From: Alphaproteobacteria bacterium
Lineage (GTDB): Bacteria; Pseudomonadota; Alphaproteobacteria; UBA9219
Direction: 5' to 3'
Length of the DNA: 64,000 bases
Assembly (NCBI GenBank): GCA_009779745.1
Contig: WRDR01000006.1
Span: forward strand, 3,469-67,468
The position numbers and the translations under genes were made by a program. Within the stretch, counting starts at the first letter, position 1, and each line of letters starts with the position of its first letter. A model generated the notes under the pieces. It saw only the letters and a list, made by a program, of their open reading frames with translations. It was not told the origin of the DNA and searched no databases. This document shows, in pieces, positions 5,247-54,367 of this stretch.

Positions 5247-5516
5247 ATATTCCACCTTCTTGCTGGAAGAGGAATACGTAGGCAACTCCTAACTCCTAAT
5301 TAAAATAAAGCTTGGATTCCCATAAACTATATGCTATCACCGCCCCTGTGTTTGACGCTGTTGTCAAACCAAGACTAAGACGTTTACCAAGCCGCAGCGC
5401 CCTGCTTTCAGCCTTGCCTGCTTAATATAAAAATGTCTTGTCCTACTTTAACCTCAAGAGAAAGCGAACAGGCGGCTGTATGCAGCTATGACCTGTCATA
5501 GAAAGAGAACAATAAA

Positions 5517-31451: not shown

Positions 31452-31545
31452 TTTGTCATTCCGGCTGTCATTCCCGCGAAGGCGGGAACGGGAATAGGGT
31501 CCTCCAACAAAAATTCAAAACTTCGCTTGGCGAAGTTTTTCAATA
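31452..31545. repeat. MITE-like composite repeat, copy 2. Its second hairpin (AAAACTTCGCTTGGCGAAGTTTT) encodes the last 7 aa and the stop codon of rsmG
   Basis: Core 'tgtcattcccgcgaaggcgggaa' at 31466-31488. The rsmG C-terminus 'KLRQAKF*' reads through the hairpin. Confidence 0.75.
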
Positions 31546-32195
31546 ATAACAATCCGCCCTGTATCGGACGTTTTCGAGGGTATCAGTCTTTCGTCAAAAG
31601 TCCAGTACTTTTTCGCTTCTAAGAGCTCTTCCTGTACCCTTTCACCTTTAAGAAAAATAAGCATAGTGTCTTTATGTGAGATTTTGGAAGAATATTTGAA
31701 CAGCTCATTCATGGGCTTCAAGGCTCTTGCAGTTATAATGTCGTATTTTTTATTAACTATAGCCTCTATTCTATGGTTCCGGACTATTACGTTCAGATTG
31801 AGGGTTTTAACCATATGACTTAAAAAAAGAGCTTTTTTCTTGATGCTTTCTATAGCTTCTATTTTGATATTTGCGTTTTTCTGTTTTGCCAGAATTGCCA
31901 GTACTAAACTTGGAAAACCCGCCCCTGCCCCAAGGTCAGCTATGCTGACAACCTTCTCATTTTCCATTTTCCATTTTCCATTTTCCACTAAAAGAGGGTA
32001 TAGCTGTGCACTATCCAAAAAGTGCCTCTCGTATATATGCGGTATCGTGCCGCCGGAAACTAAATTCATTCTCTCATTCCAAGAGACGAGATTTTTCTCA
32101 AACTCTATAAAATCATTTATAGAAAATTCCTCTCCGGTAACTTCCGCCAGTCTTTTTTCAAATTCTTCTATTTCGTTCATTTTTTCGTTCACCAT
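31515..32195 (-). CDS. rsmG: 16S rRNA (guanine527-N7)-methyltransferase RsmG, carrying an in-frame heptamer-repeat insert
   Basis: SAM motif 'ADLGAGAGFPS'. The insert 'ENGKWKMENEK' is encoded by (TGGAAAA)x4. Confidence 0.8.
   Translation of the reverse strand: MVNEKMNEIEEFEKRLAEVTGEEFSINDFIEFEKNLVSWNERMNLVSGGTIPHIYERHFLDSAQLYPLLVENGKWKMENEKVVSIADLGAGAGFPSLVLAILAKQKNANIKIEAIESIKKKALFLSHMVKTLNLNVIVRNHRIEAIVNKKYDIITARALKPMNELFKYSSKISHKDTMLIFLKGERVQEELLEAKKYWTFDERLIPSKTSDTGRIVIIEKLRQAKF
31953..31987. repeat. (TTTTCCA)x4 plus one degenerate unit, in-frame inside rsmG
   Basis: Counted directly at 31960-31987. Confidence 0.85.
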
Positions 32196-32245: not shown

Positions 32246-34096
32246 TCATTCTACTTTCCTCTTTACAAATCTCAACAACGCCACTACAGCCGCCGGCGTC
32301 ATTCCCGGTATTCTCGAAGCAGCCCCTAGTGTTCTCGGCTTTATTTTACTAAGCTTTTGCTTCAATTCAGTAGACAAACTGCCGACCGCCTCTAAATCCA
32401 AATCCTCCGGCAAAACTAGGTTTTCATCTCTCTTAAAAGCCTTGATGTCCTGCTCCTGCCTGCTTACATAGCCCCTGTATTTAGCCTCTGTTTCTATCTG
32501 TTCTCTTATATCAACACCTATACTGGCAAGCTCCGGCCACTTATTCAACAACTGTTCGAATTCTATGTACGGGTATGACAATAAATCAAACGCAGACCTT
32601 ATAACTCCGTCCGAATTCACCTTTATCCCATGGGCTGTCAGCTTATTGGGCGAATCCTTGCACCTATCCGTTAAATCTCTGGCAGCAGCTAATTTATCCA
32701 TTTTCCCATAAAAAGCCCCTGCCCGCCTCTCACCTACACAGCCTATGCTTATTCCCTCTGGAGTCAGCCTTTTATCCGCATTATCAGAACGCATGGTCAG
32801 CCTATATTCCGCTCTGGAAGTAAACATTCTGTACGGATCTGTCACACCTTTTAAAATTAAATCATCTATCATTACTCCGATGTATCCCTGCGACCGGTCT
32901 ATTACTAATTCCCCTTTTCCCAGCACTCTAAGAGCTGCATTCAGCCCCGCCATTATTCCTTGAGCCGCAGCCTCTTCATATCCGGTTGTCCCATTAATCT
33001 GTCCGGCAAAATACAAATTTTCTACCGGTTTCGTCTCCAGAGTCGGCTTTAGCTCTCTGGGATCACAATAATCATATTCTATAGCATACCCGAATTGCTC
33101 TATTTTCACACTCTCCAGTCCGACAATACTATGTATAAACGCATCTTGGATTTCTATAGGCAAGGACGTAGATATTCCGTTCGGATACACTGTGCCGGTA
33201 TCCAGTCCCTCCGGCTCTAGGAATATCTGATGGCTCTTTTTATCGGCGAATCTTACTACTTTGTCCTCTATGGACGGACAGTACCGCGGACCTATGCTTT
33301 TTATCTGCCCCGAATACATAGGCGCAAGATGCAGATTGCTTTTTATAATCTCCAGCGCCTTATCCGTAGTTCTGGTTATCCCGCATTCTATTTGTTTATT
33401 GGTTATTTCTTTGGTCATAAAAGAAAAGACCGGAGGCGGATTATCTCCGGCCTGCATTTGAACTGCCTCCCAGTTAATGCTCTTTCCGTCCAGTCTTGCC
33501 GGAGTGCCGGTCTTGAGCCGCCCTAATACAAACCCGTGCTTTTCTAAGGAAAGGCTAAGTCCTTTGGACGGCGACTCCCCTATTCTGCCCCCCTCTTTTG
33601 TTTCCAGTCCCTGATGCAGGATTCCTCTTAAAAAAGTCCCTGTAGTAACAATTACTGTTTGAGAAAATATTTCTTCATTATTATCTGTTTTTACGCCTAT
33701 GGCCCTTCCTCCTTTGACCATAATTTCTTCAACAGAAGCCTGTTTAATGATTAGGTTTTCTTTCTCGCTTAGTATCTTTTTCACTGCCTTCTTATACAGT
33801 TTTCTGTCTTCCTGCGCTCTTATTCCCTGAACAGCAGGACCTTTGCTGCTGTTCAGCATTCTGAACTGAATGCCGCCCATATCCGCAGCCCTTCCCATTA
33901 GCCCGTCAAGCGCATCTATTTCTCTTACTAAATGCCCCTTCCCCAGCCCTCCTATGGCAGGATTACAGGACATTTCGCCAAGAGTCTCTGTTCTTTGAGT
34001 AATCAACAGGACGCTGACACCCATTCTGGCAACAGCGTATGCAGCCTCACACCCGGCGTGTCCCCCGCCTATAACTATTACTGAAAATTTTTCCAT
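32246..34096 (-). CDS. mnmG: tRNA uridine 5-carboxymethylaminomethyl modification enzyme MnmG (GidA)
   Basis: FAD-binding '[12 protein letters not shown]' in a 616 aa ORF. Confidence 0.95.
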
Positions 34097-34167
34097 CTTT
34101 CTTTTTTAAAAATTTTGTTTATGCTCTAATAAAATACAGCATGATTTATACAACGGGTGTTTAGGTT

Positions 34168-35391
34168 ATGAAAGATAAAAATTTCTCATCACTGATAGAC
34201 AATGCAGCCCTTGGCATGGCTGTATTTCAGGATTTTAAGCCTGTTTATGCGAATGCATTCTTTTCTAAACTGTTCGGATACAAAAATTCAAAGGATTTTT
34301 TGAAAATCTCTCATCTTAAGGATATTATATCTAAAGACTCTTGGGATTTGTTTACGTCCGATAAAGACAACCTTACTCTAAGAGTCAAGGGCATCAAAAA
34401 GAACAAAACAGAATTTAGGGTTTCCGTTACTAAACAGCTTACTGACTTTGAAGGCAAAGAATCTGTATTTTTTACTGCTGTGGATATTACTTCTCAGGTA
34501 GAAATGGAGCACCTTTTACTGGAAAATGAACATCGGCTTCGTTCTGTTCTTGAGGTCCTGCCCTATCCCATATACATCGCCAGAAAGAATGACGGCAGGA
34601 TTCTTTTTGTAAACAGAAAATTTTGTTTATTATTCAAACAGAGTCCTTCAAAACTTTTACATTCCTCTTCGGAATCTCTGTATGTGGATACTAAAGACAG
34701 AGACCATTTACATAAGTTGTTTGAGAGTGTGAATGATATAACCGATATGGAAGTTAAGATGAAAACTTCTGCCGGCACGGTTTTCTCTGCCGAGCTTGCA
34801 TCTATACTGGTCAATTACAATAACGAGAACGCTTTCATAGTAGCTATAAACGATATATCTCAGAGAAAGAGGCTGGAGCAGGAGTTATTTCATCAAGCAT
34901 CTACCGATCACCTTACCGGAATAAACAACAGAGGGTATTTTTATAGCATGGCGGAACAGGAAGTTCAGCGTTCCAAGAGGTTTGTGAGAGATACATCTGC
35001 GATAATGATAGATATAGATCACTTTAAGCTGTTTAATGATACGTATGGTCATGCCATAGGGGATAAAGTTATAAATTTTGTAGTGAAGAGCATAATGAAT
35101 ATTTTGAGGCAGTCTGACATTGTGGGCAGAGTGGGGGGCGAAGAATTCGCAGCTATTCTGCCGGAGACAAATCTGGAAGGAGCGTATCTGGTAGCGGAGA
35201 GGATTCGGGAATACGTAGAGAGTAAAAACATATCTGTTGAAGATAAAAAATTATTGTGCACCGTGAGTATAGGAGCGGCTCAGTTATCAGCCGGCGATGC
35301 TAATTTTGATGATTTAATAAAGAGAGCGGACGAGGCTTTATACGAGGCAAAAAACAGCGGACGTAACAAAGTAGTGGTTTATAATGGTTAA
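34168..35391 (+). CDS. PAS-domain diguanylate cyclase (GGDEF)
   Basis: 'RVGGEEFAAILPE' GG(D/E)EF active site with N-terminal PAS-like repeats. Confidence 0.8.
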   Translation: MKDKNFSSLIDNAALGMAVFQDFKPVYANAFFSKLFGYKNSKDFLKISHLKDIISKDSWDLFTSDKDNLTLRVKGIKKNKTEFRVSVTKQLTDFEGKESVFFTAVDITSQVEMEHLLLENEHRLRSVLEVLPYPIYIARKNDGRILFVNRKFCLLFKQSPSKLLHSSSESLYVDTKDRDHLHKLFESVNDITDMEVKMKTSAGTVFSAELASILVNYNNENAFIVAINDISQRKRLEQELFHQASTDHLTGINNRGYFYSMAEQEVQRSKRFVRDTSAIMIDIDHFKLFNDTYGHAIGDKVINFVVKSIMNILRQSDIVGRVGGEEFAAILPETNLEGAYLVAERIREYVESKNISVEDKKLLCTVSIGAAQLSAGDANFDDLIKRADEALYEAKNSGRNKVVVYNG

Positions 35392-35813
35392 CAATGCTTT
35401 CTGTGAAACCCGCAGCAAAAACCTGCGAAACATTCATGTATATTTATAAAATACTGTGTATAAGTCGCTTCCTTTTACAAATGCAACAAATACAGCCAAC
35501 ACAATTAATTATTAAATAACATACAATTAAACACAATAATAACTATAATAATAGGTATGTGAAACACGTGCATAAACCACCCAAATTTTACCAACACAAC
35601 TAACACACAATAACAATATATTGTTAATACAATCTTAATAATAGTTACCAACAGCCTTTTCCATTAACAAAAAATTAACACTTTATAAATAATTTGTTAA
35701 TAATTAATAAATAAAAAAGTAACAATTTTAATCCACACATTTAAGACATACAACTAACAACCACATCTTTTAAATTTATTTTTATTATTTTTAAGAAAAA
35801 ATTCAAAAAATTA

Positions 35814-35842
35814 TTGACTGCCTTATCAAACAATGCTATGTT
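35814..35842 (+). promoter_or_regulatory. sigma70-like promoter upstream of rho (TTGACT-N17-TATGTT)
   Basis: Hexamers and 17-nt spacer read directly. Start site would fall near 35850. Confidence 0.4.
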
Positions 35843-35969
35843 CCTACCCAACTCGGATACACTAGTTACCTAATCTAATTTATCTCCGGGTCATATTCTT
35901 ACAAAAAAACGAGCTATATAATCTATCGTTACATAGAATATTATCGTTATCCCCACAATAAGGTTTTTT

Positions 35970-37331
35970 ATGTCTATAATGAATTTACGTGACCTCAAGG
36001 CGAAAACTCCTGTTGAGTTGCTGAAAATGGCAGAACAATACGGAGTCGACAACGCCAGCTCCATGCGCAAACAGGATATGATTTTTGCTATCCTCAAAGC
36101 TGTAGGCGAAACTCAAGACCAAGTAATATCCGGCGAAGGCGTACTCGAAGTCCTTCCTGACGGCTTCGGCTTTTTAAGGTCCCCTGAAGCCAACTATTTA
36201 CCCGGTCCGGACGACATATACGTATCTCCTTCCCAGATTAGAAAACTAAACATGCGCACCGGCGACACAGTCGAATGCGAAATACGCTCTCCAAGAGAAG
36301 GTGAGAAATATTTTGCTCTCGTCAAAGTGAACAAGATTAATTTTGAATTGCCGGAAAAAGCAAGACACAGAATAGGCTTCGACAACCTGACTGCGCTGTA
36401 TCCTAAAGAGCATTTAAAACTCGAAACTCAAGATCCAACCAAAAAAGAATACATCTCTAGGATTATCGATCTCGTATCTCCCCTGGGTAAGGGTCAGAGA
36501 GGGCTGATAGTAGCTCCCCCCAGAACAGGCAAAACAGTTATGATGCAGCAGATAGCTCATTCAATAACTACAAACCACCCGGAAGTATATCTCATAGTTC
36601 TGCTTATTGACGAACGCCCTGAAGAAGTTACGGACATGGCAAGATCAGTTAAAGGAGAAGTTATAAGCTCTACCTTTGACGAGCCTGCTGTACGGCATGT
36701 TCAGGTTGCTGAAATGGTCATAGAAAAAGCCAAAAGGCTTGCGGAGCAAAAAAGGGACGTTGTGATTTTGCTCGACAGTATTACAAGATTAGCCAGAGCC
36801 TACAACACGGTTGTTCCTTCATCTGGAAAAGTGCTGACCGGAGGCGTTGATGCGAATGCTTTGCAAAGACCGAAAAGATTTTTCGGAGCTGCCAGAAACA
36901 TAGAAGAGGGCGGTTCTTTGACGATTATAGCCACGGCATTAATAGACACCGGAAGCAGAATGGACGAAGTGATTTTCGAAGAGTTCAAAGGAACCGGAAA
37001 CTCTGAAATTATTCTGGACAGGAAACTTTCCGACAGAAGAACCTTCCCGTCAATTGATATAACCAGATCCGGAACCAGAAAAGAAGAGATGCTGGTTGAC
37101 AAGGGCACTATGTCCAAGATGTGGGTGCTGAGACGTGTGCTTAGTCCAATGGGCGTGATTGATGCGATGGAATTCCTGCTGGATAAACTGAAGTACTCTA
37201 AGACGAACAGCGATTTCTTTGACAGTATGGGAAATAGTCCGGTCGGCGGGGCAGGAGGCGAAGTTCCTGTTCAGCGGGTAGGACGCGGAAGGTCTTCTTC
37301 ATCTGGGAGTACTAATTCTGATAAGGAGTAA
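35970..37331 (+). CDS. rho: transcription termination factor Rho
   Basis: N-terminal '[14 protein letters not shown]', RecA-like core with Walker A 'PPRTGKT', and an atypical roughly 35-aa RG/S-rich C-terminal tail. Confidence 0.95.
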
Positions 37332-39114: not shown

Positions 39115-39237
39115 TTGGGCGGTTGCAACCCCCACGCTGTCATTCCCGCGCAGGCGGGAACAGGGCAATAAAACAAAATTTTAAAACTTCGCTTTGCGAA
39201 GTTTTTCCTTAACTCCACACTCCACACTTCTAATTTC
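39115..39237. repeat. MITE-like composite repeat, copy 3 (core ATTCCCGCGCAGGCGGGAAC, hairpin AAAACTTCGCTTTGCGAAGTTTT, then (ACTCCAC)n)
   Basis: Shares its core and flanks with the copies at 27422, 31452 and 50703. Confidence 0.75.
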
Positions 39238-39242
39238 GCCTT

Positions 39243-40883
39243 TCACATTCCCTCCTCAAACGGCAGCGGCTTTGTTCTGCAGTTACGGAACATATCTAAA
39301 TTGCGGTCATACTCCTTGGTTTGTATTTCCAATAATCCTAAAATAGAATGAAACAGATTATCGTGGGAATATATGTTTTGTTTAGCTTCTTTTTTCATAC
39401 AGCCATAATCTACGTAATCAAACGTTTTCATATTTTCATTCATCCATAAAATCATAGGCACTTCTGTTTGCTCTGTAGGAGCAATTTTGTAGGGCATTCC
39501 GTGCAGGTAAACATTGTTTTCGCCAAGCGATTCCCCATGATCCGATACATATGCCAATCCGGCTTCGTACTGCGGAAATTTCTTTAAGATATCGATAGCG
39601 GAAGACACAATATAATCTGTGTACAAAATAGTGTTGTCATAAGTATTCACTATTTGCGGCAGAGTACAGTTTTGAATATCCGCCGTATCGCATGTTGGAG
39701 TGAATTTCTTAAATTCATCGGGATAACGCTGATAATAGGTCGGACCATGAGACCCCATAGTGTGCAGAACAATCACAGTGTCTTGTTGGATGTTTTTCAG
39801 AATATCTTCTAAGCCCTCCAGCATCACGCCGTCATAACAATATTTGCCGTTGCAGTATTTGGGATTGTTTGTTTTGATCATATGCTCTACGTCTTCAATT
39901 CTGTCGCATACGCCTTTGCATCCGTCATCATTTTCTTTCCAAATAATATGGTAGCCGGTTTTTTGCAGCAAATCCATTAGGTTTTCCGTATATTTTGCCT
40001 CTGTAGAATTGAAATTAGAACGCAACATATGTGAAAACATACACGGCACGGAAACAGACGTTGTGGTTCCGCATGAAGTTACTTCCTGAAAATAGATAAT
40101 GTCCTGTTTTTTTAAGAGAGGATTTGTTTCTTTGTGATAGCCGCTCAATGAAAAGTTGTCTGCCCGCGCTGTTTCGCCCAGCACAAAAATCAAAACAGTA
40201 TAATGTTCGTCTTCATACGGCACATGTTTTGCATCTTCATCTAGGATTTTAAATTCTCGATGGGCTACATTCAATCGCTTGGCATAACTGATTGTTCCGG
40301 CCGCAACATTCACAATGTTAATCAGTCCTTTGATTTGTTTATGATTGCGCCCGACAGCAGCATATTCTTTGAAAGACATGCCGATTAATAATGCCAAAAT
40401 TAATACGGCAATAATGATTTTAATGCTTCTGCGCTTTAGTTCCTGCCTGAAAGATTGGTACTCTATCTTTGAAAAAATAAGTAAAATGCTGGGAGCAATA
40501 CCTGTTAACAACACCCAGAACAACAAAGAAGGCGTGATTAAATCAAATGCCTCTCGGGTGTTGGTTTCCAAGGCATTTTGAATCATATGCCTGTCAATGT
40601 AAATGCCGTAATGCACCATCATAAAATTGGTTATGCTGCCCAATACCAGCAAAGCAATTAAAAGCGGCTTTGCCGCTTTTTTAACGATAAGCAAGTTGAA
40701 GATTAAGAACAGCGGAATGGCAATAAAAAAGATAAGAGAAAAAACAAACCAAGCTGTTTGCCAGTTGGTTATTTCAAGATTTTGCCATATGAAGCGCCAG
40801 AAACTGATGTTCAGAACTGATGCGAAATAAATAGTCGCAGAATAAATCAGAACCGAGCCTTTAATATTAAAATAAATTTTCAT
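39243..40883 (-). CDS. eptA: phosphoethanolamine transferase (EptA/MCR-like, lipid A modification)
   Basis: 546 aa with a five-TM N-domain and a sulfatase-like periplasmic domain. Confidence 0.75.
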   Translation of the reverse strand: MKIYFNIKGSVLIYSATIYFASVLNISFWRFIWQNLEITNWQTAWFVFSLIFFIAIPLFLIFNLLIVKKAAKPLLIALLVLGSITNFMMVHYGIYIDRHMIQNALETNTREAFDLITPSLLFWVLLTGIAPSILLIFSKIEYQSFRQELKRRSIKIIIAVLILALLIGMSFKEYAAVGRNHKQIKGLINIVNVAAGTISYAKRLNVAHREFKILDEDAKHVPYEDEHYTVLIFVLGETARADNFSLSGYHKETNPLLKKQDIIYFQEVTSCGTTTSVSVPCMFSHMLRSNFNSTEAKYTENLMDLLQKTGYHIIWKENDDGCKGVCDRIEDVEHMIKTNNPKYCNGKYCYDGVMLEGLEDILKNIQQDTVIVLHTMGSHGPTYYQRYPDEFKKFTPTCDTADIQNCTLPQIVNTYDNTILYTDYIVSSAIDILKKFPQYEAGLAYVSDHGESLGENNVYLHGMPYKIAPTEQTEVPMILWMNENMKTFDYVDYGCMKKEAKQNIYSHDNLFHSILGLLEIQTKEYDRNLDMFRNCRTKPLPFEEGM

Positions 40884-41267
40884 CTAACCTCTGAAATAAA
40901 TGGGATATAAAATAATTCCCCAAGTCAAAAACATATTTATAAACGCTAATAGAACCAACATGCTGCCGATGTCTTTGGCTTTTTTGGATAGACTGTGAAA
41001 TTCTTCGCCGATTCTGTCAATAACAGCCTCAATAGCTGAATTGAGCAGCTCTATGATTAAAATCAGCAGCAGAGAAAAAGACATAAACGCCAGTTCAATT
41101 CCGCGAACCGGCAGAAAAACTAAAATAACAGCGGCAAAAAAGCAAAAAAGCAGCTCCTGCCTGAAAGCAGCTTCTGTTTTAAATACGGCAATAAAGCCGT
41201 CATACGAATAGCCGAATGCTTTTAATATGCGCTCTAAACCCTTGTAGGGCGATTTCATGGCAATCAC
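40884..41267 (-). CDS. dgkA: diacylglycerol kinase
   Basis: 127 aa three-TM protein ('IEAVIDRIGEEFH'). Its stop abuts the eptA start. Confidence 0.75.
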   Translation of the reverse strand: MIAMKSPYKGLERILKAFGYSYDGFIAVFKTEAAFRQELLFCFFAAVILVFLPVRGIELAFMSFSLLLILIIELLNSAIEAVIDRIGEEFHSLSKKAKDIGSMLVLLAFINMFLTWGIILYPIYFRG

Positions 41268-41373
41268 TTTTGTTGCAGGTTATAAACCCAGAAGATGTTA
41301 TTAATACTTCAGTATGCCTTAATCTGCAAGCAGAATTCTTAATTCCTAATTTTCCATTTTCCATTCTACATTT

Positions 41374-44100
41374 TTAAAACCTCACCCTAACTCCCACATT
41401 CCCCGAAACGCCCTCATAAACAGAGCCTTTTTCATAAGACACATCGCCGTACATGTAAGCATTGTCTGTCAGCTGCGCATTTAGCCCGACAGATACTTCT
41501 CCGCCGACTCCGCTTACATCGGATTTCATGTTTGCGCCGGCAAATTTAATATTCGTTTTTCCCAGCCATTCATTGTATACGCCAAGCTCAACAAACGGCT
41601 TGATTTTGGATTTTTTCCCTTCCGGCAAATATGCGGCCTGCACGCGGAAGCTCGTCAGCAAGCTCTGCGTAGTATTATACTGTATGACGCTCGTTGCGCT
41701 TGTAACGGTCTGCTTTTTACCGGCATATGCGTATTGGAGTTCAGCTTTAGGCTCGATCAGGAATTGAGATTCATTCGCATAGGATTGTGCCCAAGCCGGC
41801 GCATCATAATACAGTGCCTTGCCGGCTTCAAGACTGCCGGTAATAAAATTACGGCGTGCGTCAAATGTTATAGGCTTTCCGGAAGCCAAAATATTCTTCA
41901 TGTCCATCATCACCCAAAAATGGCGCATTGTAGCATCGGCGAACCACCCGCTGTCGTTGAACCATGTGGCATAAAGTCCTGCGCTTGGAACATTGCCATG
42001 ACCTGAGCCGTCAAACTCGTTGTCTTGGTCGATTCGGATATTTCCTGCGTGCATATATCCGCCCATAGCACCGACATACAGCCTGCCTTGTTCTATGGGG
42101 ATTTCCGCATCAATGCCTGCTTCCATGCCGCCAAGGTTCATGCGGGCGGAGATTTTTTCATCTACGTTAAGGTGTTTTCCATATGCGCGCGCCCATAAGC
42201 CGGCTCCGTTGCCGCCGCTCTCAGAGCGTAAATCGCCGAGACGTTTGCGCAGTTCGTTCATGCCTGTTTTCACAACGGACAAGTGCAAAGCAGGCATATT
42301 CGCAATGGTTTTGCCGATGTTCGATTCTCCTCCTTGATTGAATCTGTAATATCCCGGTTGACCCTCGTTTTGCAGCGAAGTTATGGTATACTCATATGCT
42401 CCGGAGTCCAAAATAGTTTGCGTAGTCGTAAAGCCATAGCCGCCAATATCTCCGCCGAACACCTGCACATCGAATGTTTCCGCTGTCGGGCTGTTAAAGG
42501 CGTTAAAGCTGCTTACATTCAGCGTGCCGCTCCCGCTTCCTGTTGTGATATTGAATAAATCAGACGTGAACGCCGCGCCGTCCAAATCAATAAAAAAGTT
42601 GTTCACGCCTGCCGCAGTCAGCGAGGCAATACTAAAGGTGTTAACCTGATTGTTGATAGTATTGACCGCCATATTGTTCAAACTTAGTATTCCCAAATTG
42701 ACTGCCGCTGTATTCTGCCAGAGATTCAATGTCGAGTTGGAATAGTTGTTTCCCAGAGCGTTTTCAAAAAACTGTCCGTAGAAAGTAGTTGTACCGCCGG
42801 AAGCATTAAACGTGCCGGTAAAGTTGGTATTGAGGGCATTTGCTCCGAAAGTAAGTATGCCGCCGTTAGTCTTGTTGATAGCGGTTGTTGCGCCGATTGC
42901 TGCAGCATTGGCAAGACCGCCTTCAAAAACAGTTTCGCCTGCCGCACCGTTTATGTTTATGTTCAGAGTTGCGTTGGCGGTTCCGTTCAGATAAATATCA
43001 TTGTTGCCGCTTGAATCCGTATTGCCGGTAAACAAAGTTGTGCCGCCTGTAGTGGTAATGTTCATAGTAGCCTGAGCTGTTCCGCTTGCCTGCGTGTTAT
43101 GCACCTGAAAGTTTATTGCGCCGCCTAAACCGCCGGCAGTATTGGTCGAAAACTCAACATTGTCTCCTATATTCATAGTGTTGATATCAGTGCCGGTTGC
43201 AATGCTGTATATTCTGGAATAAATCGCTCCGCCTGTGCCGCTGGATTCATTGTTAGAGAAGGTTGTTCCGCTCGCAATAGTCAAAGTACTGTCGGCATTG
43301 CTTGTAGCCGAGGCATTGTAAAAATCCTTATAAATAGCACCGCCGCCATATCCGGTTCCGGTAGTTGAGACAGTATTTGTGTCGAAGGTTGCGTTATCGC
43401 CGATGCTTATCACGGAACCGCCTTGATTGCTTGTGTTGTATATGGATATTGCACCTCCTCCGACTCCGGCAAGAGTGTTGTTATTATAAAAATATGAGTT
43501 GGTGCCTATGGTCAAAAGTAAACTGTTTGCAACACCTGTTGTGCTGAAGGCTATGGCACCGCCGGTAGCTGTTGAATGGTTATTGTCAAAAGTTACTCTG
43601 TTGCCGATAACAAGAGAGGCAGGATTATAAACCGGCGGAGAACCGGAACTTCCGCCGCCTGTCCATATGGCTGCTCCGCCAGTGGTTCTGTAAAAATTTG
43701 AGAAAGTCAGTCCGTCTCCGATAGTAATAGTTTTGGCTACAGACGGGTCGTTTCTGATCACTAAATCGTTGAACAAACCGCCGCCGTCTAAAACAAACCC
43801 GTCTCCGAAGATAGAGTAGGCGGCAGCCGCCTGCTGCCAAGACCCTGCGCCGGTGTTTGGAATGCTGGCGGTAAAAGTAATGTTGTCTGTCAGCGTGATT
43901 GAGGTATCGCCTGTGGTCAGTGCCGTTTCAAGTTCGCTGAAAGTAGCAACGTTTGCTGCATATGCAATATTTATGCTGCCGATTAATGCGGCTGTTGACA
44001 TTGCAAGACCGCTTATTTTTGAGAACGCCATTTTCCCTCCCCTAATTTTGGTATGTGCGTTCAGTCTAATTTTCTGTTTTTTTGAAAACAATGCGTGCAT
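41374..44100 (-). CDS. autotransporter outer-membrane protein with a Pmp-like passenger (GGA[ILV] and FxxN repeats)
   Basis: Extended signal peptide, multiple 'GGAI' motifs (ATGGAIAF, VGGGAISIY, GGGAIYKDF, TGGAIYSRIY, GGLGGAINF) and 'FxxN' motifs (FSNN, FDNN, FYNN, FDTN, FSTN, FTGN). C-terminal beta-barrel ends '...VRVRF'. Confidence 0.7.
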   Translation of the reverse strand: MHALFSKKQKIRLNAHTKIRGGKMAFSKISGLAMSTAALIGSINIAYAANVATFSELETALTTGDTSITLTDNITFTASIPNTGAGSWQQAAAAYSIFGDGFVLDGGGLFNDLVIRNDPSVAKTITIGDGLTFSNFYRTTGGAAIWTGGGSSGSPPVYNPASLVIGNRVTFDNNHSTATGGAIAFSTTGVANSLLLTIGTNSYFYNNNTLAGVGGGAISIYNTSNQGGSVISIGDNATFDTNTVSTTGTGYGGGAIYKDFYNASATSNADSTLTIASGTTFSNNESSGTGGAIYSRIYSIATGTDINTMNIGDNVEFSTNTAGGLGGAINFQVHNTQASGTAQATMNITTTGGTTLFTGNTDSSGNNDIYLNGTANATLNININGAAGETVFEGGLANAAAIGATTAINKTNGGILTFGANALNTNFTGTFNASGGTTTFYGQFFENALGNNYSNSTLNLWQNTAAVNLGILSLNNMAVNTINNQVNTFSIASLTAAGVNNFFIDLDGAAFTSDLFNITTGSGSGTLNVSSFNAFNSPTAETFDVQVFGGDIGGYGFTTTQTILDSGAYEYTITSLQNEGQPGYYRFNQGGESNIGKTIANMPALHLSVVKTGMNELRKRLGDLRSESGGNGAGLWARAYGKHLNVDEKISARMNLGGMEAGIDAEIPIEQGRLYVGAMGGYMHAGNIRIDQDNEFDGSGHGNVPSAGLYATWFNDSGWFADATMRHFWVMMDMKNILASGKPITFDARRNFITGSLEAGKALYYDAPAWAQSYANESQFLIEPKAELQYAYAGKKQTVTSATSVIQYNTTQSLLTSFRVQAAYLPEGKKSKIKPFVELGVYNEWLGKTNIKFAGANMKSDVSGVGGEVSVGLNAQLTDNAYMYGDVSYEKGSVYEGVSGNVGVRVRF

Positions 44101-44215
44101 ACCGCGCTATTAGGACAGTGCAGGGGGCATGGCTTACTTGGAGGGGATCGAGGTAAATAATAAAGTTGAAGGTGAAAATATTTCCATTTTCAACTTTCCG
44201 CATTTCAATTTATTT

Positions 44216-44302
44216 TGGTGCCCTGGAGAAGACTCGAACTTCCACGACCTTGCGATCGCTAGCACCTGAAGCTAGTGCGTCTACCAATTCCGCCACCAGG
44301 GC
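44216..44302 (-). tRNA. tRNA-Leu (anticodon CAG)
   Basis: 87 nt. Rev-comp GCCCTGGTGGCGGAATTGGTAGACGC...CTTCAGGT...GTTCGAGTC...CAGGGCACCA. Has a long variable arm, anticodon loop 'UUCAGGU' and an encoded CCA. Confidence 0.85.
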
Positions 44303-44346
44303 ACAAACAGCCTCACATACCACAAATCACTTCCAAATTCAAAGCC

Positions 44347-45227
44347 TTAATTTTCCATTTCACACTTCTCCACCCACCACTTGGGACGTATGGTTTTTAT
44401 CTGTGCTGCTGCTGAATTCGCAGACATCTCGTCCGGATATATGCCGAAACAGGTGGCACCGCTGCCGGACATGCGGGCGAACAGGCAATTGTCAGAGGCT
44501 TCCAGCATGGTTATTATCTCGGATATTTCAGGCAGCAAGGTTAATGCTGGTTTATATAAGTCGTTATTTCTTTTCTTTAATTCCGCTACCAGCTCATATA
44601 CGGTCTCCGGCTTGTTTTCCAGCTGAAATTTCGGTGAGAACGGATAATTTCCCTCTCTGTACGCCTTGTATACCGCTGGAGTTGGAACTCCTTTACAAGG
44701 GTTAATCAACACTACATGTGTTTTTGGTAAAGGAAAGCTTTTTTCTGTGCCCTCGGCTGTGATGTATACGCTGTCCGTGTGCAAACATACAGGCACATCT
44801 TCGCCTAGCTCTTTTGCCGCTTCTAAAATGCGTTCGTCATCTTTTGAGAGTCCCCACATTCTTGCCAGCAATCTTAATGTTGCCGCAGCATCTGCCGAAC
44901 CTCCTCCTATGCCTGATGCCAGAGGCAGGTTTTTTATCAGCACCAAATGCCCTTTCAGCGGATTGCCTGTAAGTCTGGATAAAGACAGAGTCGCTTTTAT
45001 TACTAGGTTGTCTTTCATATCGCCGGCATTGAGCTCTTCCCCAAATCTTCCGGAAATCTCGAAACTAAAATCCTTAGCCTCTCTTATAGCCAGCTCATCT
45101 CCTACAGACGAAAACGCTGCTAGACTATCCAAATTATGATAGCCGTTTTCCCGCCTTCCTGTAATATTAAGATACAGATTTAACTTCGCCGGTGCAAACT
45201 CTCTTAGAATACTCATTTTCCATTCCC

Positions 45228-45231
<4 letters not shown>
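44347..45231 (-). CDS. ispE: 4-diphosphocytidyl-2-C-methyl-D-erythritol kinase
   Basis: GHMP kinase motif 'LPLASGIGGGSADAAA' in a 294 aa ORF. The C-terminal 'CEMEN*' is encoded by repeat-like sequence. Confidence 0.85.
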
Positions 45232-45709
<478 letters not shown>

Positions 45710-47837: not shown

Positions 47838-49112
<1,275 letters not shown>

Positions 49113-53005: not shown

Positions 53006-54367
53006 ATGAATGTGAAGCGTGAAATCGAAAGCGGCATACACAAAGGTGCTGCGTTATATGCTTATGTAGGCGGAGGAGGCTCGGGCGGCCCGAGCGGCGG
53101 ATGGGCTGGCTGTGGAGCTGGGTGGAAAGGTGGGACAATGGTCTGTATGCCACAGGTAGGTGTTAGGAGTACTACATGCACCGGACCTCTTGCCGGCTCT
53201 CGGTTCGTGGGAGGTACTCCCGGAGTGGTGAGGTATGACGGAACGATTGTCGCCAACCCGGGCGGAAGAGGAGGAAGAGGAATGTCGGGTGGAGCAGCAG
53301 CATCTGCTGGCACGGGAGGAGGCGGCGGCGGATTCGGCAGCGGAGGGGGAGGAGGAAGAGCAGCAGGAGGCTCAAGCGGAGGAAATGGCGGAGGAAGCGG
53401 CGTGGGTCTTGGAGCAAATAACTGGGTAAGTGCAACAACGTGGCCCAGTGCTGCCGGCGGAACGAGTACATACGGAGGCAACGGCGGTCTTATAATGCTA
53501 AACTACATCACGCCGACCGGACAATGTTTGTTGGCTGAGGTGGTGAATGGTGCTTGCGGGACTGCTGTCGGAGTCGCAAGTGCTTCGGCACCGACTGCAA
53601 ACCGCTGCATCTCGGGAATCGCACTCGAAGCCAACGGCGATGAGGACGAAGGAACCACTTGGACATGGACGTGTTCTGGAGTCAACGGTGGCACCAGTCC
53701 AACCTGCACGGCACCTCGTATAGTCAACGGTACCTGCGGAAATCTTGACGGAGTCGCAACTGCCGCTGCTCCGGAAAATGCGGCTGCAGTATTAGAGGAA
53801 GAAATTGAAATAACGCCTGCAAAGACACTCTGTGCAACCGGTGCTGCAACCACAGTCACGGATACCGGAACAGCATTCACTTGGAGCTGCAGCGGCATAA
53901 ATGGCGGAACTGCCAGTACTACTTGCTCTGCTCCTAAGATGATAGACGGTGTGTGCGGTGCTTCTGCTTATCCTAATATTACTACCGGAGTAACTTCTGC
54001 GCCAACGGCAAATCTTTGCTCTGCCGGAAATCCTTCTACAACTAATCCGCCTGCTGCAGGAGGAAACACAACCGCAAGTACTGCCGCACCAAATACTGCC
54101 ATTAACTATAGTTGGTCATGCACAGGGTTGTACGGCGGAACTAACACGAACTGCTTGGCTTTAAGGCGCGTGAACGGAAGCTGCGGCACTGCTACAAGCG
54201 GCAGCAGCAGCACGCCTCCTACTACTAACCTTTGCGCTAACGGAAGAGCAAGCGGCGTGACAACAAACACCTCGACATATACTTGGTCTTGTTATGGTAT
54301 AAACAACGGAACGAATGCGAATTGCTCTAAGCCTAGGGGGGGATTTGATATATACAACCCTTTCTAG
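53006..54367 (+). CDS. glycine-rich protein paralogous to 4430-5246, with four tandem roughly 60-70 aa Cys-rich modules (VNGxCG...AP...NLC...TW(T/S)CxGxNGGT...C.AP) and no signal peptide
   Basis: 'GLGANNWVSATTWP...GNGGLIMLNYITPTGQC' aligns to copy 1. Repeat modules found by eye. Confidence 0.65.
   Translation: MNVKREIESGIHKGAALYAYVGGGGSGGPSGGWAGCGAGWKGGTMVCMPQVGVRSTTCTGPLAGSRFVGGTPGVVRYDGTIVANPGGRGGRGMSGGAAASAGTGGGGGGFGSGGGGGRAAGGSSGGNGGGSGVGLGANNWVSATTWPSAAGGTSTYGGNGGLIMLNYITPTGQCLLAEVVNGACGTAVGVASASAPTANRCISGIALEANGDEDEGTTWTWTCSGVNGGTSPTCTAPRIVNGTCGNLDGVATAAAPENAAAVLEEEIEITPAKTLCATGAATTVTDTGTAFTWSCSGINGGTASTTCSAPKMIDGVCGASAYPNITTGVTSAPTANLCSAGNPSTTNPPAAGGNTTASTAAPNTAINYSWSCTGLYGGTNTNCLALRRVNGSCGTATSGSSSTPPTTNLCANGRASGVTTNTSTYTWSCYGINNGTNANCSKPRGGFDIYNPF

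Follow-up and report, generated by a model that had tools for sequence, protein, structure and literature searches.

Results

Gene structure and start codon

A minus-strand gene at positions 41374 to 44031 was analysed in a 64,000-nucleotide stretch of contig WRDR01000006.1 (GenBank assembly GCA_009779745.1), from an alphaproteobacterium of the UBA9219 lineage; this whole 64-kb stretch is referred to below as the window. The gene lies between a tRNA-Leu gene, upstream, and dgkA and an eptA-like gene, downstream. Judged by its domains and its modelled fold, its product is very probably a classical (type Va) autotransporter of a gut alphaproteobacterium, with a passenger built from repeats of the kind known from the chlamydial polymorphic membrane proteins (Pmps; PMP repeats below). 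The longest minus-strand open reading frame (ORF) called at the locus, 41374..44100, has 908 aa. The probable protein is shorter, and the gene is organised as follows (residues of the 885-aa form).

41374..44031, minus strand: autotransporter coding sequence, from the probable start codon (M24 of the 908-aa ORF) to the stop codon; 885 aa; from the ORF call, the NCBI protein and the Shine-Dalgarno sequence upstream
44035..44043, minus strand: Shine-Dalgarno sequence AGGGGAGGG, 3 nt ahead of the ATG at 44031; read directly from the sequence
44032..44100, minus strand: the 23 codons by which the longest ORF extends further upstream (MHALFSKKQKIRLNAHTKIRGGK), probably an untranslated 5' leader
43957..44031, minus strand: predicted Sec signal peptide, aa 1-25 (MAFSKISGLAMSTAALIGSINIAYA, with cleavage between AYA and A); from sequence, hydrophobicity and homologue alignment
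42322..43956, minus strand: passenger, aa 26-570, comprising an N-terminal cap, PMP-type β-helix rungs and then a pertactin-like stalk or autochaperone region
43069..43626, minus strand: five canonical PMP repeats, xLxIGxxxxFxxNxxxxxGGAI, aa 136-321; the Chlam_PMP and TIGR01376 matches fall here
42988..43743, minus strand: extended repeat region, with one degenerate copy on either side (TFSNF...GGAAI; FTGN...NNDIY); in-register reading
42223..42321, minus strand: α-helical linker (NMPALHLSVVKTGMNELRKRLGDLRS), aa 571-603, which would plug the barrel pore; helix 571-603 of the AlphaFold2 model
41377..42204, minus strand: predicted 12-strand autotransporter β-barrel with a terminal Phe, aa 610-885

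The 885-aa form is the protein annotated at NCBI (MCL2473301.1 / MCL2505288.1), where it already carries the label autotransporter. The ATG at 44031 is directly preceded by AGGGGAGGGAAA, which places a GGAGG Shine-Dalgarno site in front of M24. Inspection of the sequence ahead of the ATG at 44100 found no Shine-Dalgarno site. Close homologues lack the 23-codon extension and have ordinary signal peptides of 20 to 25 aa, and their mature N-termini align with ANVATFSELETAL. Read from M24, the protein begins with MAFSKISGLAMSTAALIGSINIAYA followed by ANVA; sequence and hydrophobicity indicate an n-region with K5, a hydrophobic core and the AYA/A cleavage motif, and the AlphaFold2 model places a helix of low predicted local distance difference test (pLDDT) score at residues 5-16. 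M24 is thus the likely start codon, which would give a normal 25-residue signal peptide. The extended signal peptide proposed in the preliminary description is an artefact that arose because the longest ORF was taken. An extended signal peptide of the ESPR type was also considered; it was rejected on the lack of a Pfam match to ESPR (PF13018) at E<=1, the missing Shine-Dalgarno site and the absence of the extension from homologues.

PMP-type repeats in the passenger

The passenger was rich in T, G, N, A and S, much as the Gly/Thr/Asn/Ser-rich composition originally described. Five GGAI motifs were present (aa 180, 215, 253, 290 and 326 in the numbering of the 908-aa ORF), spaced near-regularly at intervals of 35-38 residues. 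Composition-matched shuffles of the passenger contained a mean of 0.19 GGA(I/L/V) motifs, and none of 2000 contained five or more. The FxxN motif occurred eight times, compared with an average of 4.1 in shuffles, and eight or more copies were found in 93 of the 2000; taken alone, the FxxN count is weak evidence. Each of the five GGAI motifs was preceded by an FxxN motif 9-14 residues earlier, with a repeat length of 33-42 residues. The motif counts given at the outset, at least five GGAI and at least six FxxN, were therefore borne out, five of the eight FxxN motifs being paired with GGAI.

Profile searches placed the repeats in known families. Chlam_PMP (PF02415) was matched in Pfam at 21.6 bits against a cutoff of 20.6, and TIGR01376 (POMP_repeat) in NCBIfam at 16.3 against a cutoff of 15. 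The PMP middle domain (PF07548, PMP_M), which lies between repeats and barrel in Pmps, had no match in the protein at E<=1.

Barrel, linker and predicted fold

The C-terminal region matched the Pfam Autotransporter domain PF03797 (E=4e-27, 96 bits, aa 635-887) and the NCBIfam family TIGR01414 (1.4e-43). Both Pfam domains that the preliminary description had named for checking, Chlam_PMP and Autotransporter, were therefore found. The protein ends in ...GVRVRF, so that the β-barrel ending in Phe was also correctly described, and the aromatic last residue is the one expected of the β-signal of outer-membrane proteins. A terminal F was likewise present in 70 of 158 proteins, mostly relatives from the phmmer search. 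The linker segment NMPALHLSVVKTGMNELRKRLGDLRS is better conserved than any other part of the family's sequence and served as the search pattern for homologous loci. The only sequence match in the PDB was the barrel of BrkA (E=2e-7). Membership of the Bartonella BafA family (NF040482) was rejected, since the score was 57.3 bits, over the C-terminal part only, and fell far under the equivalog cutoff of 700.

An AlphaFold2 model was built on a 7-sequence alignment. It had a mean pLDDT of 73, with values above 85 over most of aa 250-430, and consisted of the signal-peptide helix, an all-β region forming a β-helix at residues 26-570 with three strands per repeat, a helix at 571-603 and a 12-strand barrel at 610-884. 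Foldseek searches superposed the modelled barrel, with E about 1e-13 and TM up to 0.88, on those of EstA, EspP, BrkA, AIDA-I, Hbp and NalP; the passenger was placed on pertactin. By sequence and model, the protein thus has every feature by which a classical type Va autotransporter is recognised computationally: a Sec signal peptide, a β-helix followed by a linker, a barrel and a terminal aromatic residue. Collectively, the domains, repeats, AlphaFold2 fold and barrel superposition argue for a classical autotransporter with a PMP-repeat passenger.

Several points weigh against this interpretation. The Chlam_PMP score exceeds its cutoff by only 1 bit, and the PF02415 and TIGR01376 matches are both marginal. 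The Pertactin and AC_1 autochaperone domains of relatives were not detected in the protein at E<=1 in Pfam; by this measure, the stalk would be a shortened or divergent version. Only seven sequences stand behind the model, and pLDDT falls to 55-65 at aa 500-600. Expression, surface display and adhesion are all predictions. Finally, the β-helix fold is common to many polysaccharide lyases and hydrolases and does not by itself establish adhesion.

Relatives in gut bacteria

An exhaustive phmmer search returned 609 cluster representatives at E<=1e-3 and 135 at E<=1e-30, the nearest being 48% identical. Close relatives were collinear with the protein and differed mainly in the number of rungs, with 6-23 FxxN...GGA(I/L/V) pairs. 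Among 13 relatives, Chlam_PMP was matched in nine (best 8e-20), Pertactin in nine and AC_1 in six; none of the 13 matched PMP_M at E<=0.01. The protein is not, on this domain evidence, a member of the chlamydial Pmp family, because it lacks the PMP middle domain and its relatives carry Pertactin and AC_1 instead.

The loci of the relatives came from metagenome-assembled genomes (MAGs) of termite guts (Hm464, Lab288, Mx356) and human guts ('Azospirillum sp. 51_20', MGYG-HGUT-04400) and from a MAG of water-deer rectum, and further relatives were found in many human-gut and termite-gut metagenome contigs. Relatives with MCL2... accessions lie on Ga01233xx contigs from termite guts, which suggests that the source, too, is part of the termite-gut MAG set. 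Scans of genome and metagenome contigs gave no match better than 40% identity. Homologous autotransporters with outer-membrane barrels also occurred at loci L008, L009 and L014, on contigs that had been assigned to 'Lactobacillaceae bacterium' (a contig of 829 kb) and to Elusimicrobiota. The Gram-positive label on a barrel-encoding contig suggests mis-binning or mislabelling of termite-gut MAGs.

The rarity of such a protein outside the Chlamydiae, as first supposed, did not hold. Chlamydial proteins account for only 443 of the 1448 UniProt proteins with PF02415 (PMC11166332), and the domain is present in more than 100 non-chlamydial species (PMC10715098). A Pmp-like autotransporter has also been noted previously in Akkermansia (PMC11166332).

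One related termite-gut alphaproteobacterial MAG contained at least three family members (MCL2538052, MCL2538457 and MCL2538634; P0159, P0170 and P0027, at loci L005, L007 and L017) of 773-1598 aa with up to 23 motif pairs. Thus, small paralogous expansions do occur in the lineage. No autotransporter paralogue was present within the window, and an NCBI accession look-up, used as a substitute for a direct genome count, assigned not one of the 20 nearest relatives to the source MAGs.

Chromosomal context of the gene

The following features flank the autotransporter gene.

44216..44302, minus strand: tRNA-Leu(CAG), 185 nt upstream of the probable start codon; ARAGORN, and Rfam RF00005 at 51.5 bits
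44157..44186, minus strand: σ70-like promoter match TGGAAA-18-TATTAT (9/12), the sole one between the tRNA and the gene; consensus match only
41349..41374, plus strand: heptamer array ATTTTCC x3.7 (84% matches), reading (TGGAAAA)n on the coding strand; between the autotransporter stop codon, which it touches, and dgkA, whose start (41267) follows after 82 nt
40884..41267, minus strand: dgkA; Pfam DAGK_prokar, 2.5e-30
39243..40883, minus strand: eptA-like phosphoethanolamine transferase gene; Pfam EptA_B_N and Sulfatase

Shuffled sequence contained promoter-like sites at least as often as the region did. Scanned against Rfam, the entire window yielded the tRNA and nothing else. The tRNA-Leu was where the preliminary description had placed it; the accompanying suggestion of an integration and plasticity site found no support. 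The neighbouring genes were core genes (ispE, DUF1036, purA, dgkA, eptA, rho, gidA/B, secA, dnaG), with no integrase, transposase or other mobile-element gene among them. No direct repeat of the tRNA-Leu 3' end was found within 11 kb, and the only similarity between the two flanks of the gene was weak and related to the heptamer (D4, D15). The G+C content of the gene, 0.48, differed slightly from the 0.41-0.46 of the flanks. The locus thus has none of the marks of a tRNA-linked genomic island: there is no integrase and no tRNA 3'-end repeat, and the compositional difference is slight.

The gene was also without the sequence tracts expected of a variable surface antigen, as it had first been cast. 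The longest run of G or C in the gene was 4, in answer to the proposed check for poly-G or poly-C tracts, and the only homopolymer of 7 or more was T7 at 44077-44083, within the 5' leader extension. No mutable tract of the kind that marks a phase-variable surface protein controlled by simple sequence repeats was present in the promoter or the 5' coding region. Two contigs from separate runs (L001 and L061; SRR10512950 and SRR10512951) matched the window with 100% identity across 39139..45708 and 39139..44245, with the array included, so that no variation in repeat number was seen between the window and these contigs at the locus. Both of these independent short-read contigs stop at position 39139 of the window. 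At its other end, one breaks off within a heptamer array (45708), and the second begins within tRNA-Leu (44245). These end points suggest that repeated elements break assemblies of the source genome.

In a synteny check, none of 59 homologous loci had ispE, dgkA, eptA or DUF1036 as a neighbour. This unshared neighbourhood is compatible with an accessory gene; the homologues at the 59 loci are only 30-45% identical.

Heptamer arrays in the window

The TTTTCCA array reported downstream of the gene was present, touching the stop codon, and proved not to be particular to the autotransporter gene. Tandem Repeats Finder (TRF) detected 14 period-7 tandem arrays in the window, compared with 0-2 (mean 0.6) in 20 Markov simulations. 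They lie at 5284, 8547, 10631, 16069, 16152, 20834, 25007, 31958, 39212, 41349, 45679, 49076, 50828 and 62030, with units that include TTTTCCA, TACATTC, ACTCCAC, AACTCTC, CTCCTCT, TCTGGCA and GTGAAAT. The arrays were mostly intergenic and sense-oriented, and most either overlapped a start codon or preceded one by no more than about 100 nt. About 428 kb of related-genome loci contained only 16 period-7 arrays, mostly of two copies. Over-represented heptamers and heptamer arrays close to start codons are known in other lineages (PMC4679880, PMC4692102).

The 106-nt gap between the autotransporter gene and dgkA, which lie on the same strand, contained no terminator-like site, and co-transcription of the surface protein with the lipid A modification genes dgkA-eptA is possible. 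Because the arrays of the window mostly precede or overlap start codons and no terminator-like site stands before dgkA, the array after the autotransporter stop codon is more plausibly part of a genome-wide class, and possibly a leader of dgkA-eptA. As a tentative and rather doubtful proposal, it would belong to a genome-wide set of sense-oriented heptanucleotide arrays that, if length-variable, could modulate or switch the translation of the genes that follow, dgkA-eptA included.

Some arrays reached into coding sequence. Two start codons, that of the DUF1036 gene (array 45679-45709, gene 45228..45701) and that of a 418-aa gene (array 49076-49110, gene 47838..49094), are overlapped by (ATGGAAA)n arrays, and in both cases the N-terminus reads MENGKWK.... 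Every (ATGGAAA) unit contains an ATG, and with more or fewer copies a different ATG would come into frame. Within rsmG/gidB (31515..32195, minus strand), (TGGAAAA)x4.3 at 31958-31987 is translated in frame to VENGKWKMENEK. This peptide falls between two conserved segments, LDS and GAGAGFP, and has the look of an insertion into a core enzyme that arose from the repeat. Four-copy heptamer arrays were also found in a few termite-gut relatives (L015 5575-5602; L017 7228-7259; L057 1740-1810). The one at L015, TAGTTAA x4, begins right after the end of the autotransporter homologue and mirrors the arrangement in the window.

Other observations concerned regions of the window away from the gene. The lowest G+C content (0.35) was found at 34001-36000, where a PAS-GGDEF diguanylate cyclase gene (34168..35391) is followed by an AT-rich non-coding stretch with several repeats of 9-22 nt (35594-35793), upstream of rho. 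The ORFs 53006..54367 (453 aa) and 47838..49094 (418 aa) had no Pfam match at the thresholds used, and the 453-aa ORF contains GGA-rich short repeats at 53264-53402.

Discussion

Proposed route to the cell surface

The present analysis showed the domains of the protein, the periodicity of its repeats, its predicted fold and the distribution of its family; the secretion pathway, surface exposure and adhesive role proposed here are inferred from established knowledge of type Va secretion. The 25-residue Sec signal peptide would carry the protein to the periplasm, where the 12-strand C-terminal barrel, with Phe as its last residue, would be inserted by the β-barrel assembly machinery (BAM). The α-helical linker would occupy the barrel pore, and the passenger of about 545 residues would emerge and fold, from the C-terminal stalk towards the N-terminus, into a right-handed β-helix on the cell surface. 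The distal half of this helix would contain about seven PMP-type rungs, five of them with the canonical FxxN...GGAI pair.

In published AlphaFold analyses of Pmps, each rung is built by FxxN and GGA(I/L/V) motifs that lie buried and packed against one another, and the motifs have the same structural role in proteins of other phyla (PMC10715098, PMC11166332). By analogy with these analyses, FxxN and GGAI would be buried structural elements of each rung and not ligand-binding sites. Chlamydial Pmps mediate adhesion (PMC2997323). The displayed helix would therefore most likely serve in adhesion or aggregation within the gut. A Pmp-like autotransporter and candidate adhesin, the wording originally chosen, is a fair description of a protein that matches both Pfam domains and has a predicted type Va fold.

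Alternative explanations

The breadth of the β-helix fold raises the question of whether the passenger could be an enzyme, that is, a polysaccharide lyase or glycoside hydrolase of the pectin-lyase fold, exported by the autotransporter route to act on host or microbial glycans. This is unlikely: identity to such enzymes was 8-16%, no catalytic Pfam or NCBIfam family was matched at E<=1, the repeat region is modelled as a regular stack without an obvious catalytic-cleft insertion, and the characterised passengers of the PMP-repeat and pertactin types are adhesins. The BrkA and pertactin matches would fit, in turn, a non-adhesive role of the Bordetella type, such as the binding of host defence factors or serum resistance (as for BrkA and Vag8). 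The likeness to Bordetella-type autotransporters is, however, limited to a generic barrel and a generic β-helix, and the source apparently lives as a commensal or symbiont in the guts of invertebrates or vertebrates, where no matching ligand is known; such a role is very improbable.

Equally, there is very little to recommend the view that the protein is a Pmp proper and a surface antigen subject to phase or antigenic variation, its gene having been acquired at a hotspot of integration at tRNA-Leu and being switched by the TTTTCCA array. The arrangement invites it, in that the tRNA-Leu sits 3'-end-on to the gene, the array abuts the stop codon, the position of the gene is not conserved at any of the 59 homologous loci and a related MAG carries at least three paralogues. 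However, PMP_M was matched neither in the protein nor in the 13 relatives, the core-gene neighbourhood (gidA/B, rho, purA, ispE, dnaG) contains no integrase or mobile-element gene, the tRNA 3' end has no direct repeat and the difference in G+C content is slight. The array cannot shift the frame or the promoter of the gene, because it lies 3' of the coding sequence. The short G and C runs, the identical contigs of the two runs and the lack of a same-MAG paralogue among the 20 nearest relatives further argue against a variable antigen. The preferred interpretation is thus still that of a classical autotransporter with a PMP-repeat passenger.

Significance and comparison with known systems

The protein is a further example of the documented non-chlamydial PMP-repeat autotransporters, and the finding is real but ordinary. 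It has little significance beyond annotation, as repeats of the PMP type have been recorded in bacteria at large, in archaea and even in Trichomonas. One data point is added, namely a few hundred sequence clusters from termite-gut and human-gut Alphaproteobacteria that join PMP-type rungs to a proteobacterial pertactin/AC_1 stalk. In uncultured gut symbionts, proteins of this kind may reasonably be considered candidate attachment factors.

The heptamer arrays resemble those built from TAACTGA in Beggiatoaceae, Cyanobacteria and Bacteroidetes (PMC4679880) and from GGGAATC and GGGGAYT in Xanthomonas and Nostoc (PMC4692102), in that many short, intergenic period-7 arrays stand upstream of start codons. 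They differ in that the units of the window are other ones and vary, the lineage is alphaproteobacterial and some of the arrays are translated. If the tentative proposal for these arrays were true, the heptamer-repeat phenomenon of Beggiatoaceae, cyanobacteria and Xanthomonas would be extended to a gut alphaproteobacterium.

Among autotransporters, the Bartonella BafA family (NF040482) shares an alignable C-terminal barrel region with the protein, whose score is nevertheless far below the equivalog cutoff. Pertactin, BrkA and Vag8 of Bordetella and UpaB of Escherichia coli share the signal peptide, β-helix passenger, α-helical linker and 12-strand barrel; they are without FxxN/GGAI rungs, and the protein in turn has no Pertactin or AC_1 match. 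The Pmp-like autotransporter A0A1C7PBX1 of Akkermansia glycaniphila (PMC11166332) likewise combines a PMP-repeat β-helix passenger with an autotransporter barrel in a gut bacterium outside the Chlamydiae, although it belongs to a different phylum and is likened to the present protein by description only. The chlamydial Pmps, such as PmpD of Chlamydia trachomatis and Pmp21 of C. pneumoniae, are type V autotransporters with β-helix rungs of paired FxxN and GGA(I/L/V) motifs. The present protein passes the PF02415 and TIGR01376 cutoffs, and its repeat unit of 33-42 aa agrees with the rule of at least 27 aa per rung (PMC10715098). Unlike the Pmps, it has only five canonical motif pairs, an alphaproteobacterial host and no PMP middle domain, in place of which its relatives use Pertactin/AC_1 autochaperone modules. 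The union of PMP rungs with a pertactin/AC_1 stalk supports the published view that FxxN and GGAI are a general solution for building β-helix rungs, not a chlamydial signature of adhesion.

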